Virus record (IMG/VR): IMGVR_UViG_648276652_000013
From: a virus
Lineage: Duplodnaviria; Heunggongvirae; Uroviricota; Caudoviricetes
DNA: 25,816 nt
Reading direction: 5' to 3' (one strand)
This document shows, one piece after another, positions 1,738 through 25,816 of the stretch (its first letter is position 1; each line of letters starts with the position of its first letter). Made by a program: the position numbers and the translations under genes. A model generated the notes under the pieces. The model saw nothing but the letters and a program-made list of their open reading frames with translations, was not told the origin of the DNA and ran no database searches.

Positions 1738-2799
1738 TCAACTCCCAAACGCCAGGTAATAAATAGCGTACGTGCCGCTTGTATTCGTATAAACGTTAAA
1801 ACGGTCAGTTCCAGGGATATATGTATTAAACGAGACTGTGTCGGCATATAACCCGTTGCTGACTAATGTCACGACAACGCTTGAGCAAGCATTTGGGAAT
1901 GGTATTGGGAAGAAGACCTCATTACCTGCAGTTCCAGAGGCGATTCCAGATGCATTACCCCCCATCACCACCATGCCACCAGGAAGTTTGTACCAAAAAG
2001 CTGATGCTGTAGATCCGCTTAAAAACGAACTCATATCAGGTATTTGTGACGCTCCCGTACCTACGTTTCTTGTGGCTGTTGTTCCAAGCCCTAGGACGCT
2101 CCTTAATCCTGCCGCATCTTTTCCACTAAGAGTGGTGAGAGTTGCATTCAGAGGTTGGGCACCAACATCCGACGCAGACGGCTTACGCTGGTCATGGTAC
2201 AACTCACTGATTTCAGGATTTCCATTATAAGTCTGTCGCCCAAGGAAAGCTCTGAATGCCCCACCATATGAAACAGCCAGCTGCGCCCATTCTGTCGATG
2301 TCGGGCCTGCTGCCTGCATTAAAGCCACACTTAGCGGGTAAAGATTGTTCGCCTGATATGGTTCATACATGAATCCACCGACATGGCTATTCCCGGCTGC
2401 ACTACCTTGCAGCCTACTCCCGACACCAAAATTTCCCTTATGTAAAACGTCTGATAAACCAAGGTTTTCGAGAGCCGTTTTCACCGTGCCATCCGATTTG
2501 ATATCACCAAACGGATTCTTGCGGCTCAGGTATTCAACAGCAAACCCCGATCCCAGCAATTCAACAAAACCGGGCAGATCACCATTATCAAGCACATCCC
2601 GTTGCGTTTTATCACTTACAAACTGGGCCAGAGCTGCAGCAATAAAGCTGGCCTGCCGAATAACCTTATTGACTTGCGCACTGGAGGCTTTCCCTGCTGT
2701 AAATCCGGATAAAAGCGCGGGCAACGCTTCCCATTCCTCCTGCGATATAACATTGGCATTTCGATCCGTTGCAAACGCTTTAAAGTCATTTTTCGCCAT
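1738..2799 (-). CDS. Tail fibre protein
   Basis: Starts MAKNDFKAFATDRNANVISQEEWEALPALLSGF... (internal ATG at 2799 overlapping the upstream stop). Gly/Ser/Thr-rich C-terminal half; located between baseplate genes and Tfa. Confidence 0.7.
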   Translation of the reverse strand: MAKNDFKAFATDRNANVISQEEWEALPALLSGFTAGKASSAQVNKVIRQASFIAAALAQFVSDKTQRDVLDNGDLPGFVELLGSGFAVEYLSRKNPFGDIKSDGTVKTALENLGLSDVLHKGNFGVGSRLQGSAAGNSHVGGFMYEPYQANNLYPLSVALMQAAGPTSTEWAQLAVSYGGAFRAFLGRQTYNGNPEISELYHDQRKPSASDVGAQPLNATLTTLSGKDAAGLRSVLGLGTTATRNVGTGASQIPDMSSFLSGSTASAFWYKLPGGMVVMGGNASGIASGTAGNEVFFPIPFPNACSSVVVTLVSNGLYADTVSFNTYIPGTDRFNVYTNTSGTYAIYYLAFGS

Positions 2800-3479
2800 C
2801 AGAGTAATACTCCCCATGCTCCTACATCAAAACCACTGATGAATTCGTTATCCATATCAAAACCAAAAAATTTTGAGCCTTCCGATGGGGTTTCCACCGA
2901 AGGTGTTTCAATGCCACCCGCCCATACCCCGGCAGCTTTTACTGTGAGATACCCCTGTTTAATTGCCGCAATTAACTCACGCGATACATCTGAAATATCA
3001 GTATCAGGAAAGACCCAGACCGATATCGTCATGTCCTGGTTATCGACTATCTGCATTCGCAGCCCGGATCCTGCTGTTGCAGCGTCAAGAATTGCCGGAA
3101 GCGAATCATTCCGTCCATCCCAGTTATTAATCGCAATCTTCGCTTTAAGAATGACACGATAAGTTTCATCGCTGAGGTACATGTATCCGGAATCAGGATC
3201 GTATGGTCCCTGCCATACCCCCTGATCATATCCAAGCCCGTCGGTATCCCAGCTGAAATAGACACCTGAGATAGGCTGGCTGACAACACGGCTACGTCCG
3301 ATCCACAATCCCAGAATGTCAAGTTGCACACCAACCGCAGAGTCAATATCAAATGCAGTAATCAGCCCTCTGGTGGCAGCCGCAACATCAATAAGCGGCC
3401 GGGTCATCAGATCAACATGCGCAAGAAATTTAGGTTTGGTGGCGTGGTAGTTCGTGATTAGTTCGGTGTATTTGCTCAT
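2799..3479 (-). CDS. Baseplate/tail protein (Mu gp48 / P2 gpI / DUF2313-like)
   Basis: 226-aa ORF immediately downstream of the baseplate-J-like gene, coupled by overlap; position and size fit the gpI/gp48 family. Family assignment from memory only. Confidence 0.55.
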   Translation of the reverse strand: MSKYTELITNYHATKPKFLAHVDLMTRPLIDVAAATRGLITAFDIDSAVGVQLDILGLWIGRSRVVSQPISGVYFSWDTDGLGYDQGVWQGPYDPDSGYMYLSDETYRVILKAKIAINNWDGRNDSLPAILDAATAGSGLRMQIVDNQDMTISVWVFPDTDISDVSRELIAAIKQGYLTVKAAGVWAGGIETPSVETPSEGSKFFGFDMDNEFISGFDVGAWGVLL

Positions 3480-4675
3480 GACTCCACCGTTATAACGATA
3501 TTTTCCGGGGTACAGGACGCAGATTCGTTGTATCTGATATCAATGTTTGATGACGACAAAGCCCCCGGGGATTTCCCAATCGTCAGTTCCTGAATATCGT
3601 AATAGCGTGCATTCCCGCCACTCACCACGCCAAGATTCGCCGGTGAGTAAATGCGACTTAAAAGGACCGAATCACCAATCGTCAAACTATTGATATAGTC
3701 GGAAATAGCCTGCTGGATCTGCTGCCCTATCTGTGAGGTATAACCCGTAAAAACTTTTAATTTAATCCGGGCATAAACAGGCACATCACTGGAACGCGAG
3801 AATTTGATTACATGGGGATTGCCGTATTTATCCGGAACCGTAACGGATGTTGTACCGTGAGTGGCTGTCCCCTGGCCTTTATTCCCTCTGATAGCCTGAG
3901 CAATATCCGTCACATCACCGCCATCCACAATTACAGCAACAGAGTGTGGCGGTAACCCGTTACCGTCCTCCGAACCAGTATCGTTTTCATAGAGTTTGTG
4001 GCGGGTTACACCGGTAACATTAGAAACAGCACCATCCAGTGCTTCAAATGGGGTTATTGATGGCAACGCAACACTTTGCGACTGGCGGATACGTAACTCA
4101 GCATCAGTTTCTGCCGGAGAGCCAACAGTAGCCGCAGCAGGATTAGTTACCGAAACCCAGCCACGGGTTGGCGTATTAATTTCAGTGATAGTTCCAGCCA
4201 GCGCCGCCACTGCACCACTGACGGAACATGTTGCGGTCGCCATCACTGTACCATCCACGCCGACCACCACTGAAGCAGGCAAACGCCATATCACATTATT
4301 ACTGTCTTTCACGCTGCCATTAATGATGGTTGTTCCGGCAGTTCCTGTAAGAAGCAAATCAACCGTAGAGTTCGTCGCGCCTTTACGTGAAATACCATTT
4401 ATTTTCACGTTACTGGTCAGTGCAGCCCCATAGCCGGTTGCCGGTGAAAAACAGTTGTAGACAGTTATCGCCATATTATTGGCATCATGAATCGCCAGCG
4501 CCATCAGAGCCACCATCTGGCCGTCTTTGCTGTCCGGTTCGAGGTAGGCATCACTGCCATAAATCTGCTGAAAATAGCTAATCAGGGTGCTGAGTATCGT
4601 CTGATAATCAGGCGCACTGATCCCCTCCGCGGTTACCTTTGCAGATAAACCGAGAGAATCAAGGTTCAGAGCCAT
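3476..4675 (-). CDS. Baseplate J-like protein (Mu gp47 / P2 gpJ family)
   Basis: 399-aa ORF in conserved synteny spike-wedge-J-I-fibre; start overlaps the upstream stop. Confidence 0.65.
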   Translation of the reverse strand: MALNLDSLGLSAKVTAEGISAPDYQTILSTLISYFQQIYGSDAYLEPDSKDGQMVALMALAIHDANNMAITVYNCFSPATGYGAALTSNVKINGISRKGATNSTVDLLLTGTAGTTIINGSVKDSNNVIWRLPASVVVGVDGTVMATATCSVSGAVAALAGTITEINTPTRGWVSVTNPAAATVGSPAETDAELRIRQSQSVALPSITPFEALDGAVSNVTGVTRHKLYENDTGSEDGNGLPPHSVAVIVDGGDVTDIAQAIRGNKGQGTATHGTTSVTVPDKYGNPHVIKFSRSSDVPVYARIKLKVFTGYTSQIGQQIQQAISDYINSLTIGDSVLLSRIYSPANLGVVSGGNARYYDIQELTIGKSPGALSSSNIDIRYNESASCTPENIVITVES

Positions 4676-5028
4676 TACGCCTCCGATGTAACAGTCGTTA
4701 TTCCATAGAGAGTGTCGATTTCAGCGGAAAACATGACACGTCGGGTCGTGGTATCCACCGTCGTATTGAAAGAGAGGATTGATTTAACGCCCTGCGTTTC
4801 GAGGATGCGCTTACGGATCGCCAGGTTGTAAGTTTCTGGTTTTTGCCTGCCCAGCACGGACTGGATCCACGGTGTTCCCTCTGTGGTATCAAGAAACCAT
4901 TGCCCATACCACAATTCGAATCGCGTTTTCACAGCCTGCGCTACGGCCTCAGGCGAGTTAATCAGCCAGGTGTCATCACCGCTGCCAAAGGTGTAATCGC
5001 CATCGGCGTCTTCACGTCTGTATCGCAT
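4675..5028 (-). CDS. Baseplate wedge protein (Mu gp46 / P2 gpW / T4 gp25-like)
   Basis: 117-aa ORF between the spike and J-like genes, translationally coupled on both sides. Confidence 0.55.
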   Translation of the reverse strand: MRYRREDADGDYTFGSGDDTWLINSPEAVAQAVKTRFELWYGQWFLDTTEGTPWIQSVLGRQKPETYNLAIRKRILETQGVKSILSFNTTVDTTTRRVMFSAEIDTLYGITTVTSEA

Positions 5029-5780
5029 CAGTTTACTCCGTCGGTATTGCTTCCACCGCGCTGAACACCACCATGAGTGTGCGTATCATCGATTGGCTTG
5101 CCGTTAGCCTTCACGCTACCCAAAAACTCAACAGCACCAGTGATTTTTGAAGCCACACCAGAAACAACAGACCCCACCATGCCTCCCATCCAGGTTAACA
5201 GGCCATGAATGGTTACTTTCTCAGAAAAATCAGCCAGAGGGGCAACCACATCAAGGCCCCCCGGAGCGACAATTTTAATTTTCCTGGTATCAGGATTAAG
5301 CTCAAAATAGGTGCTGCCGTCATCACTACGCAACTGTGTGGCACTGGTATTAATACCGCTAATCTTCCTTGCCTGCGACTGGGGACCGACAATACAAAAC
5401 GCATCCGATAAATCATGCATTCTGTCATCGACCGGCTCCTGTATCCCGCCACTCTGCCACCAGAAATCAATACAACGATCGGCAAAAATCACCAAACATT
5501 CATCACCGGCTTTAACTGGAAACGTTAGCGTACAGCCTCCGCCACGCGGGAATACCACTGGCACATCCACCAGCAATGGGTAATTTTTGGTAATGCGGTT
5601 GCCGTCGTTATCAATTTCAACGTAACGGATAGCAGGCTGTACAACCGCCGTCACCGCATCAGGAGCGAATGACTGAACAATGCCAGGCAAGGCGACACGG
5701 ATCTGGTTCTTTGTTGTTTCCCGTTCAGATTTAAATGTTTCGGCAAGGTCGCCGCTGCGGGTCTGGTCAGATACTGCCAT
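5028..5780 (-). CDS. Baseplate central spike / assembly protein V (Mu gp45-like, gp138-N family)
   Basis: 250 aa with a C-terminal DDTHTHGG motif typical of spike-tip metal-binding HxH; SD GGAG upstream of the ATG at 5780. Confidence 0.65.
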   Translation of the reverse strand: MAVSDQTRSGDLAETFKSERETTKNQIRVALPGIVQSFAPDAVTAVVQPAIRYVEIDNDGNRITKNYPLLVDVPVVFPRGGGCTLTFPVKAGDECLVIFADRCIDFWWQSGGIQEPVDDRMHDLSDAFCIVGPQSQARKISGINTSATQLRSDDGSTYFELNPDTRKIKIVAPGGLDVVAPLADFSEKVTIHGLLTWMGGMVGSVVSGVASKITGAVEFLGSVKANGKPIDDTHTHGGVQRGGSNTDGVN

Positions 5781-5798: not shown

Positions 5799-5830
5799 CA
5801 AAAAACCCGCCAAGTGGCGGGTTTGAATTT
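5799..5830 (-). terminator. Intrinsic terminator ending the two-gene insert
   Basis: Stem CCCGCC / GGCGGG (5806-5811 / 5816-5821) with loop AAGT; on the minus strand it is followed by a T-run (complement of the A-run at 5799-5805). Sits 15-45 nt past the stop of the 142-aa gene. Confidence 0.75.
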
Positions 5831-5844
5831 TGAGAAATTTCAGC

Positions 5845-6273
5845 TTATGCAGTTAACGAGTCATCACCAATCTTCAGTAATTGATTAACGATTGCATCGA
5901 CCTCTTCCGCATCCAGAATTACACTTCTCGCGGTAATCCGGTTGATTTTCCGCTCAAGCTTGTAATCAGAATTAACACGTTGGGCATGCGTCATTTTCAG
6001 TTTAACGCCGATTTTCTTTACTGCGTTAACATCAACATCGTTAAGTGCAGCTGCCTCACCACTACAAAAGGCCGTATAGACTCGCATGTGAACTCCACCT
6101 TTTAGTTTTTCACCATCTTGTGTAGCGGTCGGTACCAGATTGTTGGTGATCCGTAAGGCGGAATGGTACATACCATAGTATGCTCGGCTAATAGCATTTC
6201 TCGTCCACATCTCACCGTTTAGAGCCAGGGAATGCTTAGCCAATTCAAGAAAACAGGTATGCTCAACCGACAT
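5845..6273 (-). CDS. Hypothetical protein (142 aa), distal gene of the inserted cassette; possible HEPN-like R-x6-H motif
   Basis: Start overlaps the upstream gene stop (ATGA at 6273). AT-rich (about 38% GC in a 60-nt sample versus about 53% in neighbouring tail genes). Contains RAYYGMYH (R-x6-H) near the N-terminus. No family recognised. Confidence 0.6.
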   Translation of the reverse strand: MSVEHTCFLELAKHSLALNGEMWTRNAISRAYYGMYHSALRITNNLVPTATQDGEKLKGGVHMRVYTAFCSGEAAALNDVDVNAVKKIGVKLKMTHAQRVNSDYKLERKINRITARSVILDAEEVDAIVNQLLKIGDDSLTA

Positions 6274-7004
6274 TAGAGTTCCCCGGCTTCAAAGCATCCG
6301 ACGCATTCTGAATCCGCAAGCCCCGCAATAATAATCTCATCAGCCAAGGCATTATTCATCTGCGAAAGAAGCACTGGATCGTCTGTTTTGACTTCAACGA
6401 ACAGCGTATCAAGTTCTGACATTACATAAAAAGCATGAGCGCCAGCAAGACGAGCGCGGTACTTTTCTGCAACGTTCATCATGAGCCGCCCAATAGTTTT
6501 TAGCTCCTGAGCATGATCTTTTTGGGTATGCAGATAATTGAGCGTGTCATACCATTTGCCCATATCTTCAGGGCGCGGTACTTCCATTGCAGTTAGCATC
6601 GGCATCACCTTTTCAAGCAAATCGATATCAACCCAGTATGCAGAAATTGTAGCAACCTCAGCCAATATCGTTGGATTAAGTGAATCAGATGCTTTCTGAA
6701 TCATCACATACTGGCGAGCATGCAAACCTAAGTTACGCAGCGCAATCGTATAGTTACAAAAAGAAACTGGATCGTTAGGCGCTATTCTCAACCCCCGCTC
6801 ACAGAGTGAACATCCTTCATCTATTTCACCAAGAACAAGCTTAGCTAAGCCTTCAATTGATAGCCCCTGATAACGTTCAGGTAGTTTCTTCGCTTCACGA
6901 ATGATTCGATGGATTTCAAACTCACTCAGAAGGTTTTCACCCTTAGTTAATGAAGGAGTCAGAAGATCTAACAGTTCTCCTGATTTTGGCTGCGCTAAAC
7001 TCAT
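6273..7004 (-). CDS. Hypothetical protein (243 aa), proximal gene of the inserted cassette; probably all-alpha, repeat-like
   Basis: ORF preceded by a 149-bp non-coding leader with AGGA upstream of the ATG; AT-rich; no family recognised. Confidence 0.6.
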   Translation of the reverse strand: MSLAQPKSGELLDLLTPSLTKGENLLSEFEIHRIIREAKKLPERYQGLSIEGLAKLVLGEIDEGCSLCERGLRIAPNDPVSFCNYTIALRNLGLHARQYVMIQKASDSLNPTILAEVATISAYWVDIDLLEKVMPMLTAMEVPRPEDMGKWYDTLNYLHTQKDHAQELKTIGRLMMNVAEKYRARLAGAHAFYVMSELDTLFVEVKTDDPVLLSQMNNALADEIIIAGLADSECVGCFEAGEL

Positions 7005-7153
7005 GTTTTAGTTATTCCTGGCTTTAATGAAGTAGCATATCGATGGCAATCCACCATCAAAAAGTCAGTGCAGTGTAATCGCTCGTCTCAAAAAACAACA
7101 GTTTTTAGAGCACATTTTGTTGTTTTTCAGGCGTTACGAATTTCAGGTTACCT

Positions 7154-7495
7154 TCACCCAGCCACTTTTTTACAAGGGAAAGATCCGATGATTTTCGGCG
7201 CATCCATGCTGTTCTGCAGAAGCTGGACATTCAGGAATCGCGTTTCGGTACCAGGGCGACGAATGTATTCAAAGCCGTAGTTGTTACCGTCTTTGGCAGG
7301 CATAAGCCCCATGTCTACTTTCAAACCATTGGTACCCAGTTCGGTGATTTTTTGAGAGGTAACTCTTTCACCGTTGATAGTCGATAACTCGCCCTGGTTT
7401 GCAACCATAGTGTAGCCACCGCATTTAACCGTGAAGCCATCCGCCCACGCGCTGCACGCAGAAAAGACAGCTAACAGAAAAATAATACCCCTCAT
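7154..7495 (-). CDS. Small secreted protein (113 aa) with N-terminal signal peptide
   Basis: MRGIIFLLAVFSACSAWA followed by DGF: hydrophobic core and AxA-type cleavage site. Mature part has two Cys. SD GGGGA overlaps the hub gene end, so it is tightly coupled to the hub gene. Confidence 0.6.
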   Translation of the reverse strand: MRGIIFLLAVFSACSAWADGFTVKCGGYTMVANQGELSTINGERVTSQKITELGTNGLKVDMGLMPAKDGNNYGFEYIRRPGTETRFLNVQLLQNSMDAPKIIGSFPCKKVAG

Positions 7496-23821: not shown

Positions 23822-24283
23822 CTAATTTGAACACTGCTCTTTGATGTAGTCCTGCAAGTAGCCGACCTGCTTCGTCACTGTGACGATTCGCTCTCTGAGG
23901 GTGAAATAATCCCGTTCAGCGGAGTCAGTAAGTCCGGGGCTGGAAGCATCGCCCAAGCTGCCGGTGCCGGTCTTTCCGCTCGCTGGACATCGGGCATTGA
24001 AGTGCAGCCCACACTTGCCAGTGCGAACACAACGCTGCAGATCATCAAGCTGCTTTTTCGCATCAGCTAGTTCTCCGGTGTATTTAGCATCGAGTGCATC
24101 AGCATCACGCTGGCGCTGCTGCATGTCAGTAATGGTGGCGTTCGCCTTCTCCAGTTCACTGGCCTTGTTATCGCGCTGCTCTTTGTAGGCGATTGCGTTA
24201 TCACGGTAATGATTAACAGCCCATGACAGGCAGACGATGATGCAGATAACCAGAGCGGAGATAATCGCGGTTAACCGACTCAT
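23822..24283 (-). CDS. Rz: i-spanin Rz
   Basis: From the ATG at 24283, [34 protein letters not shown]... is very close to lambda/phage 21 Rz: N-terminal TM segment plus coiled-coil periplasmic domain. Confidence 0.9.
23875..24063 (-). CDS. Rz1: o-spanin Rz1 (lipoprotein embedded in Rz in +1 frame)
   Basis: 62 aa: signal sequence, lipobox-like ...ASVGC, then a proline-rich mature part (...[26 protein letters not shown]), as in lambda Rz1. Confidence 0.85.
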
Positions 24284-24371
24284 GACATCAACACTCCAAC
24301 GGCCAGAAACCACGGCCACGCATCGTTGCCATTGAATGCGAGCAACGCTGCCATGAAAAAGCAAATCATGC

Positions 24372-24869
24372 TCATTGTTGCCCCCACAAACAGACTTCAC
24401 GCTCAATCTCACGACGAGTCATCAGACCTTTCCATTGCTTACCGCCAGCGTATGTCCAGCGACGTAGCTGATCACATGCGCCTTTGATATCGCCCTGGTT
24501 TATTTTGCGAAGAAGCGTCGATGTTCTGAAATTGCCAGCACCCACGTTGTAAACGAATGAGTAAAGAGCGCCGCGCGTTGTTTCCGGTATATCGACTTTG
24601 ATGTACGGGTTAATTTGTCTGGCGACCGTGGCAAGGTCTTTATTCAAGAGTGTTTTGCATTCTGCTTTGGTATACGTTTTACCGAGCATGATGTCTTTTC
24701 CTGTATGCCCGTGACATACAGTCCATACACCAACAATATCTTTGTATGGTATGTAGCTGACACCTTCCAGACCATCGTTACCACTTGGGCCAGTGATTAA
24801 CACTGATGCTATAGCAATTGCTCCGCCACCAATAGCAGCAGCAACGACTTTTCGTAATGATGGAGGCAT
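24372..24869 (-). CDS. R: SAR endolysin (phage 21 R21-like lysozyme, T4-lysozyme fold)
   Basis: N-terminal Gly/Ala-rich signal-anchor-release segment ([18 protein letters not shown]), then an E...D...T catalytic triad region ([23 protein letters not shown]); start overlaps the holin stop. Confidence 0.9.
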
Positions 24870-25084
24870 TATTCACCTCTCGCAGCCTTGCGCTTATCTT
24901 CTTTAATCTTGAAATAAAGGTTTGTCAGGTACGTCAGCAGGCCAAATACCAGACTACCCAGCACACCGATTGCAGCCCACTGTGACGGAGTTACTCTATC
25001 GAGCAACTGTAAAAACCAGTAGCCAGCACTGCCTGCGGAGGTGCCGTAGGCAATGCCTGTTGAAATTTTGTCCATGGATTTCAT
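24869..25084 (-). CDS. S: Pinholin (phage 21 S21-like), dual-start motif
   Basis: From the ATG at 25084, [71 protein letters not shown]: two TM domains and an M-K-S-M dual start. Strong SD GGAGGTGA upstream. The track ORF's upstream extension is rejected. Confidence 0.9.
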
Positions 25085-25170
25085 AGCCTCACCTCCGCAC
25101 GGAACGGATGGCATAGTTATTATGTGTAGGCTTTCAGACACATCAATCAGAGCCTTAATTGATATATATG

Positions 25171-25816
25171 TGGATTTGCCCCTATATTTCCAGACACCTG
25201 TTATCACTTAACCCATTACTGGCTTGCTGCCGTAGATATTCCCGTGGCGAGCGATAACCCAGTGCACTATGCGGATGCCATTCGTTATAATGCTCGAACG
25301 CCTCTGCAAGGTTCTTTGCTGCCGTTAACCCGTCTGGTTTGGGCATGACACTGATGTAGTCACGCTTTATCGTTTTCACGAAGCTCTCTGCTATGCCGTT
25401 ACTCTCCGGACTCCGCACCGCCGTGTTCTTCGGTTCAAGCCCCAACATCCGGGCAAACTGCCGTGTTTCATTAGCCCGGTAGCATGAACCATTATCCGTC
25501 AGCCACTCTACTGGAGACGCCGGAAGCTCGTTGCCGAAGCGGCGTTCCACCGCTCCTGGCATGACGTCCTGTACTGTTTCACTGTTGAAGCCGCCCGTAG
25601 TGACCGCCCAGTGCAGTGCCTCACGGTCACAGCAGTCCAGCGCGAACGTGACCCGCAGTTTTTCTCCGTTATCACAGCGAAACTCGAACCCGTCAGAGCA
25701 CCATCGCTGATTACTTTCTTTCACAGCCACTCTGCCGGTATGTGCCCGTTTCGATGGCGGTACAGCGGGTTTTCGCTCAAGCAACAGCGCATTCTGGCGC
25801 ATGATCCGGTAAATAC
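25171..25816 (-). mobile_element. IS2 (IS3 family), right-end inverted repeat and 3' portion; element continues beyond window end
   Basis: Terminus TGGATTTGCCCCTATATTTCCAGACA at 25171 matches the IS2 terminal inverted repeat as I remember it, and is followed by the InsD coding sequence. Confidence 0.85.
25182..25816 (-). CDS. insD: IS2 transposase OrfB (InsD), C-terminal part (5' end outside window)
   Basis: ...[41 protein letters not shown] ... [34 protein letters not shown] integrase core of the IS3 family, recognised as IS2 InsD. Confidence 0.85.

Follow-up and report, generated by a model that had tools for sequence, protein, structure and literature searches.

The tail module of a temperate contractile-tailed phage holds, between the genes for the baseplate hub and the baseplate spike, a small gene whose product appears to be destined for export, and the question is whether such a gene supplies a part of the virion, belongs to the accessory genes beside it, or does something else in the cell envelope. 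The window, that is the whole stretch of 25,816 nucleotides that was analysed (IMG/VR record IMGVR_UViG_648276652_000013), is a prophage with its contractile-tail module on the minus strand, and is 100% identical to sequence of E. coli strain WAT. The first-pass annotation had described an open reading frame of 113 aa at 7154-7495, with a signal peptide ending in AWA before DGF and two cysteines in the mature part. This is confirmed, and the strand, which had not been given, is minus. The translation of 113 aa begins with MRGIIFLLAVFSACSAWA and continues after the predicted cut as DGFTVKCGG...FPCKKVAG. The features that the argument draws on are as follows.

7154-7495, minus: gene for the small, predicted exported protein (113 aa; PHROG 3443; NCBI 'STY1065/STY2022 family phage-derived protein'), stop codon at 7154-7156
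7442-7495, minus: signal peptide, codons 1-18 (MRGIIFLLAVFSACSAWA), predicted signal peptidase I cut after AWA
7157-7441, minus: mature domain of 95 aa, predicted 8-stranded up-and-down beta-barrel with Cys25 and Cys108
7502-7507, minus: Shine-Dalgarno-like AGGGGA, read from the sequence, within the final hub codons and 6 nt 5' of the small gene's ATG
7499-8560, minus: baseplate hub gene (Pam3 gp19 / phi92 gp137 / E217 gp41-like)
7090-7127, minus: AT-rich hairpin (AAAAACAACA ... UGUUGUUUUU) with a U run, directly 3' of the small gene
5803-7004, minus: two-gene cargo with a strong terminator (5803-5824), a unit separate from the small gene and independently exchangeable
6273-7004, minus: cargo gene, 243 aa
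5845-6273, minus: cargo gene, 142 aa, HEPN-like
5028-5780, minus: baseplate spike gene (Pfam PF18352 N-terminal spike domain and GpV apex motif), downstream border of the slot
12525-13670, minus: sheath
12074-12514, minus: tube
9452-11461, minus: tape measure
8865-9452, minus: Dit-like tube initiator
8563-8865, minus: plug (Pam3 gp18-like)
4675-5028, minus: sheath initiator
3476-4675 and 2799-3479, minus: wedge proteins
1738-2817, minus: fibre
23822-25207, minus: lysis cassette, with P21-type holin (24869-25207), phage lysozyme (24372-24869) and Rz (23822-24412)

Two further open reading frames lie towards the ends of the window. One at 334-1065 on the plus strand, downstream of the tail-fibre genes and opposite to them in strand, carries an Acyl_transf_3 domain (profile positions 112-322 of 326) and may be a lysogenic-conversion gene of the O-antigen acyltransferase type, or a fragment of one. 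The other, at 25182-25802 on the minus strand and just upstream of the lysis cassette, has transposase/integrase core domains (rve, rve_3) and may represent an IS element that has inserted next to the cassette.

The open reading frame at 7154-7495 is a real gene under purifying selection. For the same phage pairs, the median dN/dS of the mature small protein is 0.077 and that of the hub 0.053, while dS of the small gene is twice that of the hub (0.82 against 0.38). Taken with a dN/dS of about 0.08, this difference in dS indicates old alleles that have been exchanged by recombination, each of them under purifying selection; in the region-wise dN/dS of the variable N-terminal part, saturated pairs drop out. 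The hub stop codon TGA (7499-7501) is followed by a spacer of 3 nt and then by the ATG of the small gene (7495-7493), and the proposed coupling to the hub is supported by equally tight spacing elsewhere: among at least 536 IMG/VR contigs that encode a relative of the small protein, the gene starts 1-5 nt past the hub stop in 79 of the best 80. A promoter scan found no sigma-70 promoter of the gene's own upstream, the promoter-like sites not exceeding the shuffled count. Downstream, a spacer of 149 nt separates the small gene from the two-gene insert, and the hairpin at 7090-7127, which is absent from the terminator-scan calls and not separable from shuffled sequence (z-score -0.59), is possibly a weak terminator closing the conserved unit. 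Given a start 3 nt past the hub stop and neither an own promoter nor a convincing terminator, expression looks late and lytic, and we infer that the small gene is co-translated with the hub from the late tail operon.

Signal-peptide assignment relied on the classical rules and on conservation of the features despite drift in sequence. The n-region carries R2, the h-region GIIFLLAVFS is 10 residues long with a mean Kyte-Doolittle value of 2.92 (against 0.1-2.5 for the neighbouring tail proteins, most of which it exceeds by far), and A16 and A18 occupy positions -3 and -1 of the predicted cut between AWA and DG, so that the positive n-region, the h-region of 7-15 residues and the small neutral -3/-1 residues of Sec and signal peptidase I substrates are all present. 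Cys25 and Cys108 lie in the mature part and Cys14 inside the signal peptide. Residues 1-18 drift freely in sequence across 121 close homologues, yet a Lys or Arg near the start and a hydrophobic core persist, with Ala at -3 in 116 and at -1 in 120, and Cys25 and Cys108 each kept in 120; strong conservation of sequence starts only past the predicted cleavage point. The same holds for 188 full-length members, down to about 28% identity, in which the hydrophobic core is found in 98%, the -3/-1 site in 98% and the Cys pair in 99%. In two representatives, P0194 and P0214, the PHROG 3443 domain forms the C-terminus of a lipoprotein. Because the signal peptide and the Cys pair are conserved throughout the family and lipoprotein-borne versions of the domain occur, Sec export of the small protein to the periplasm, as the first-pass annotation had proposed, is very likely on the evidence of sequence.

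The presence of Cys14 and of lipid-anchored relatives raises the possibility that the allele in the window is itself an outer-membrane lipoprotein, cut by signal peptidase II before Cys14 (VFSA then C) rather than after AWA. The window allele and 18 other members (19/189) do fit a relaxed lipobox core, [LIVMFWSTAG]2-[LIVMFYSTAGCQ]-[AGS]-C. However, this is highly improbable, given that Phe at -3 breaks the strict lipobox [LVI][ASTVI][GAS]C, which just 2 of the 189 members pass, and that Cys14 occurs in only 7/121 close homologues while the AxA site is almost invariant; the latter counts also led to the rejection of FSAC as a lipobox of the family as a whole.

Comparison of the interval between hub and spike across relatives, which had been put forward as a check, was made on 40 species-level loci retrieved via the hub protein. 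The family gene stands right behind the hub in 32 of them, and seven of these 32 (L035, L037-L039, L041, L042 and L048) have the plain order hub, small gene, spike, without cargo. In L043 and L046 the spike follows the hub with nothing between, in L017 and L040 the contig ends just past the hub, and in the other four a different exported protein, as judged from its sequence, fills the slot: a 379-aa lipoprotein with domain X and domain Y in L024, a 246-aa lipoprotein with domain Y in L025, and related signal-peptide proteins of 154 and 182 aa in L016 and L026, respectively. These alternative proteins are built from modules, and domain X recurs in P0194 and P0214, where the architecture is lipoprotein domain X followed by the PHROG 3443 domain, and searches of the alternative slot proteins against Pfam, PHROGs and NCBIfam gave no matches other than this PHROG 3443 domain in P0194. 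In L016 (4896-5015) and L025 (6783-6890) a stretch of 20-25 codons from the 3' end of the family gene survives behind the replacing gene, encoding ...NSMDAPRIIGSFPCKKVAD and ...LNVQVVQANMDAPKVFGTYDCVKVG, and these 3' scars show a like-for-like replacement of the family gene. Short 3' remnants are likewise represented by the E. coli matches H123 and H124. An apparent fusion of hub and small gene in L036 (about 5975-6400, a 516-aa open reading frame) proved to be an artefact of a masked N run in the stored contig.

All isolated phages with the family, including SEN34, Mulock, YP3, vB_EcoM-689R2 and ST340-VIM1phi10.1, have the order hub, small gene, variable genes, spike. In other isolates the place is taken by other genes or is closed: in Hafnia phage yong1 the hub gene is followed at once by one for an unrelated secreted protein of 'Z-type' (L132, 3556-4032); Burkholderia phage vB_E192a, with a hub 31% identical, has a non-homologous 123-aa signal-peptide gene on the opposite strand between hub and spike (L134, 3415-3786); and in Edwardsiella phage ZHS and Acinetobacter phage BUCTT20 no gene separates hub from spike. 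As a close relative, the 'minimalist' phage MMNM of Klebsiella was considered and rejected. In these temperate myophages the slot after the hub is almost always filled by some protein that is exported by the signature of its N-terminus, and it is the position of the small gene, rather than its sequence, that the lineage conserves.

The family is found in SEN34-like temperate myophages, in prophages of E. coli, Salmonella (including Typhi, the source of the NCBI name) and Klebsiella; 287 of 5426 complete E. coli genomes have a relative of the small gene, always chromosomal. Named sources and loci are all from Enterobacterales except L015, contig CACSKA010000001.1 from an assembly labelled Chryseobacterium sp. 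18061, which has a 92%-identical hub together with the family gene; Elizabethkingia phage EKP1 (H13) likewise gave a short 93% DNA match in the phage collection. These two matches reflect either contamination or mislabelling, or an unexpectedly broad spread of hosts.

Given that the small gene lies between hub and spike, shares the coupling of its translation with the hub and is nearly universal in the lineage, it is possible that its product is a component of the virion or of its assembly, the hydrophobic N-terminus then being an uncleaved anchor or membrane-insertion segment and the protein residing on the hub-spike complex. However, there is only a very slight probability of this for several reasons: first, the AxA site and the Cys pair found throughout the family indicate cleavage and an oxidising compartment, and lipoprotein-anchored versions of the domain occur. 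Second, the hub in the window is a sequence relative of Pam3 gp19 and phi92 gp137, and the six components of the solved Pam3 baseplate include no counterpart of the small protein, the hub and spike genes being consecutive in both phages (gp19/gp20 in Pam3, gp137/gp138 in phi92; PMC9942802). Third, the gene is not always present, being missing or exchanged for unrelated exported proteins in L016, L024-L026, L043, L046, ZHS, BUCTT20 and yong1. Finally, among close relatives the small protein is the least conserved of the tail module, a pattern not expected of a subunit that would have to fit between hub and spike: in loci whose hub identity to that of the window is 92% or more, the mature small protein shows only 59-77% identity, with the exception of YP3 (98%). 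Because the homologous baseplate is complete without it, some relatives lack the gene and others have unrelated exported replacements, the small protein is very unlikely to be a baseplate or other virion part, which agrees with what had been suggested from the window alone, and its gene appears dispensable. The description of the PHROG 3443 protein as an exported, non-virion accessory protein can thus be given with considerable confidence.

The first-pass annotation had also supposed that the small gene might belong to the same cargo as the two-gene insert downstream. This part of the proposal was rejected, given the seven loci with the small gene but no cargo and the reassortment of alleles and cargos. 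Small-gene alleles of the window type (97-99% aa identity) precede at least four different cargos, namely the 243+142-aa pair of the window, a DUF2335 protein (strain A4), a DUF4282 protein (BCE049) and a variant two-gene pair with only 31% identity (13E0725), and conversely an identical DUF4282 cargo adjoins two small-protein alleles that are 59% identical to each other. The IMG/VR contigs show at least 10 cargo configurations behind near-identical small genes. The C-terminal tails of the small proteins place the cargo breakpoint within the conserved 3' end of the small gene, and this 3' end seems to be the recombination anchor for swaps of both allele and cargo. Many E. coli genomes match just the 3' half of the small gene.

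Of the cargo proteins in the window, that of 243 aa is phrog_22649 and that of 142 aa is phrog_5176; the latter has an HEPN-like motif RAYYGMYH (Rx6H) and a weak match to PADLOC HEPN_IX (E 0.009). Size variants of the two-gene cargo at this site encode 256+131, 266+123, 192+138, 207+125, 257+126 and 261+131 aa, and the cargo has the appearance of a polymorphic gene pair of the defence type, sited in a hotspot between hub and spike. It is this downstream cargo, and not the small gene, that is the moron-like element here. Lambdoid tail-region morons such as lom, bor and HK97 gp15 resemble the small gene in being accessory and non-structural, with envelope-located products encoded among late genes, but they are sporadic and have their own promoter and terminator, whereas the small gene has no detectable promoter, only a weak hairpin downstream and a GC content (0.48) between those of the hub (0.54) and the cargo (0.44). 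A reading of the small gene as a sporadic moron was therefore rejected, since the gene is near-universal (32/40 loci, 79/80 best contigs), coupled to the hub and without detectable promoter.

The small protein matches the phrog_3443 profile over residues 2-112 of 113 (E 8.4e-48), with 396 homologues in a set of 5.8 billion proteins, and the family is narrow, comprising 66 clusters at 50% identity among 1.8 billion representatives. A homologue from E. coli that is 59% identical bears the NCBI name 'STY1065/STY2022 family phage-derived protein'; given that the NCBIfam HMM library has no match to the small protein, the name probably comes from another type of rule. Pfam and PADLOC likewise gave no matches, and a profile search of PDB sequences returned a single insignificant one. 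Comparison with Spackle, Llp, Cor, Imm, Sie and the PADLOC set found no homology in sequence or fold, and the literature on SEN34, Brunovirus, STY1065/STY2022 and Hafnia phage yong1 contains no mention of the small gene and no virion proteomics. PHROG 3443 is thus already catalogued but uncharacterised, with no detectable homology to known exclusion, defence or inhibitor families. A second subfamily, of the type in Klebsiella phage ST340-VIM1phi10.1, is about 28% identical and retains the signal peptide and both cysteines, and the polar residues N41, Q48, K49 and N89 are invariant in both subfamilies.

In the structure prediction that had been recommended, AlphaFold2, run on an alignment of 61 sequences, gave a confident all-beta model (pLDDT 81) in which an N-terminal helix, the signal peptide, is followed by 7-8 strands forming a barrel; as to relatives, the barrel resembles avidin/lipocalin-like folds generically and no informative structural relative was found. 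Membership of the avidin/streptavidin family is not indicated, there being no Pfam avidin match. Cys25 lies on the first strand and Cys108 on the last, and because these two strands bear the invariant cysteines, a Cys25-Cys108 disulfide probably closes the modelled barrel. Periplasmic hydrolase inhibitors that are small beta-barrels (PliC/MliC, Brucella PhiA, LprI) are only 5-10% identical to the small protein, which has no Pfam MliC or LprI match, and given that avidins and designed barrels outscore the inhibitors of PliC/MliC type, the resemblance is one of common fold only.

A predicted periplasmic barrel that is probably co-expressed with the late tail genes, dispensable, encoded in a slot that is kept filled, and represented by old recombining alleles under purifying selection leads us to infer an accessory protein in a conflict-type envelope role. 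In the mechanism that is suggested, a small soluble periplasmic protein would be made with the hub from the late tail operon, its signal peptide would be cut after AWA, and the mature 95-aa barrel, probably closed by one disulfide, would act in the cell envelope on the traffic of phages. It might bind at a stage of tail-tip penetration or DNA entry that takes place in the periplasm, for example to the muralytic end of the tape measure, as T4 Spackle, which inhibits the tail lysozyme in the periplasm, does with gp5 (PMC7677548), or it might bind a receptor on its periplasmic face, as T5 Llp, which locks its receptor from the periplasmic side, does with FhuA (PMC9586334). The outcome in either version would be that related phages are excluded and progeny are not wasted on infected cells or debris. 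Considered as a whole, with export, a non-virion nature, the filling of the slot and an envelope action on phages taken together, this explanation is plausible although it falls somewhat short of being probable, and the more specific statement that the small protein is an entry-blocking or inhibitor accessory protein of the periplasm, which is drawn by analogy, is offered tentatively.

The analogy has limits in each case. T4 Spackle is, like the small protein, small, phage-encoded, provided with a cleavable signal peptide, periplasmic by prediction here, non-structural and dispensable, and it acts on the cell-wall-degrading tail tip of an incoming phage, as is proposed for the small protein. 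However, the two are related neither in sequence nor in fold, Spackle being absent from the fold matches of the small protein, and Spackle is encoded by an early gene unlinked to the tail genes, whereas the small gene is linked to the hub. The fold of Spackle is helical. The Cor proteins of T1, phi80 and N15 are receptor-blocking lipoproteins encoded beside tail or receptor-binding genes, and together with P1 Sim and HK97 gp15 they belong to the same category of entry blockers as Spackle and Llp. Llp and Cor are, as the small protein appears to be, small exported products of genes in or beside the tail cluster, they protect the infected cell and the progeny from phage of the same type, and some relatives of the small protein are lipid-anchored as they are. 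They differ in being lipoproteins where the small protein is predicted to be soluble, in showing no homology to it, and in the position of its gene behind the hub and not beside a receptor-binding protein. Given that no separate sigma-70 promoter was found and that the tight link to the hub speaks for expression late in the lytic cycle, exclusion by a prophage that expresses the gene is unsupported, and a role during lytic growth like that of T5 Llp and T1 Cor, in which latecomers are excluded and progeny spared from debris, fits the anatomy of the locus better.

Of the two versions, that of a hydrolase inhibitor is mildly favoured, because the predicted fold is a small barrel, the tape measure carries a lytic transglycosylase annotation, and in the related phage BUCTT20 a Pfam LprI lysozyme-inhibitor gene (38.9 bits; L135, 666-1022) adjoins the tape-measure gene. 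Small-protein alleles do not co-vary with the C-terminus of the phage's own tape measure or spike (in L004 these termini are 99% identical and the small protein 63%), which argues against a cognate lock-and-key pair with either. In comparisons of the window with L001-L048, tail modules that are nearly identical elsewhere are mosaic at these termini too: with a hub identity of 92% or more, identity is for example 57-99% over the last 200 aa of the tape measure and 41-99% over the last 120 aa of the spike, each varying independently of the small protein.

An inhibitor could also be directed at the phage's own lytic cycle, as a periplasmic helper that tunes the breakdown of the wall, for example by restraining the exported lysozyme or host lytic enzymes until the pinholin fires, or by setting the timing of lysis. 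The phage encodes a holin of the P21 type along with a lysozyme and Rz, and in such systems the endolysin is exported ahead of lysis; coupling to the hub implies late co-expression, and the barrel is generically like periplasmic hydrolase inhibitors. Nevertheless, this is improbable: the lysis cassette is complete and 17 kb distant, the small gene is linked to the hub and not to the lysis genes, whose modules vary as a mosaic from phage to phage in this group, some relatives do without the gene, and neither a Pfam match nor, by eye, the signature loops place it with PliC/MliC.

It is also conceivable that the protein does not act on phages at all and is instead a lysogenic-conversion factor benefiting the host, one that alters the envelope of the lysogen with respect to stress, serum or antimicrobial resistance, or the scavenging of a ligand. 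A protein that is exported, non-virion and dispensable, in a prophage region that also gathers accessory cargo, would suit this role, as would a barrel of the avidin- or lipocalin-like kind typical of ligand binders, in which the invariant N41, Q48, K49 and N89 could make a binding site, and E. coli prophages carry an intact copy of the gene, one of them alongside a truncated tape-measure gene. However, the role is unlikely given the late-lytic look of a gene that starts 3 nt past the hub stop with no promoter of its own and no convincing terminator, the occurrence of the family only beside this type of hub and never free in chromosomes among the loci examined, and the lack of a Pfam match to avidin or any other ligand-binding family.

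Returning to action on incoming phages, a more general form of the entry-blocking explanation would extend to every occupant of the slot: all would be periplasmic entry blockers directed against the cell-wall-degrading tip (the lytic domain of the tape measure) or the docking step of incoming contractile-tail phages, that is, Spackle analogues with an unrelated barrel, diversified by the exchange of ancient alleles and by like-for-like replacement. In this full form the idea is a speculative one with little probability. Few means are known by which one phage blocks another at the envelope, and small exported phage proteins with a periplasmic action, for instance Spackle, Llp and Cor, belong to these; very few families of them have been characterised. 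For annotation, the small gene is a stable landmark, at whose conserved 3' end a hypervariable cargo site, probably a defence hotspot, begins. For the biology of these phages, a fixed slot, swapped alleles and like-for-like replacement together make a compact and testable hypothesis, with natural allele swaps at hand.
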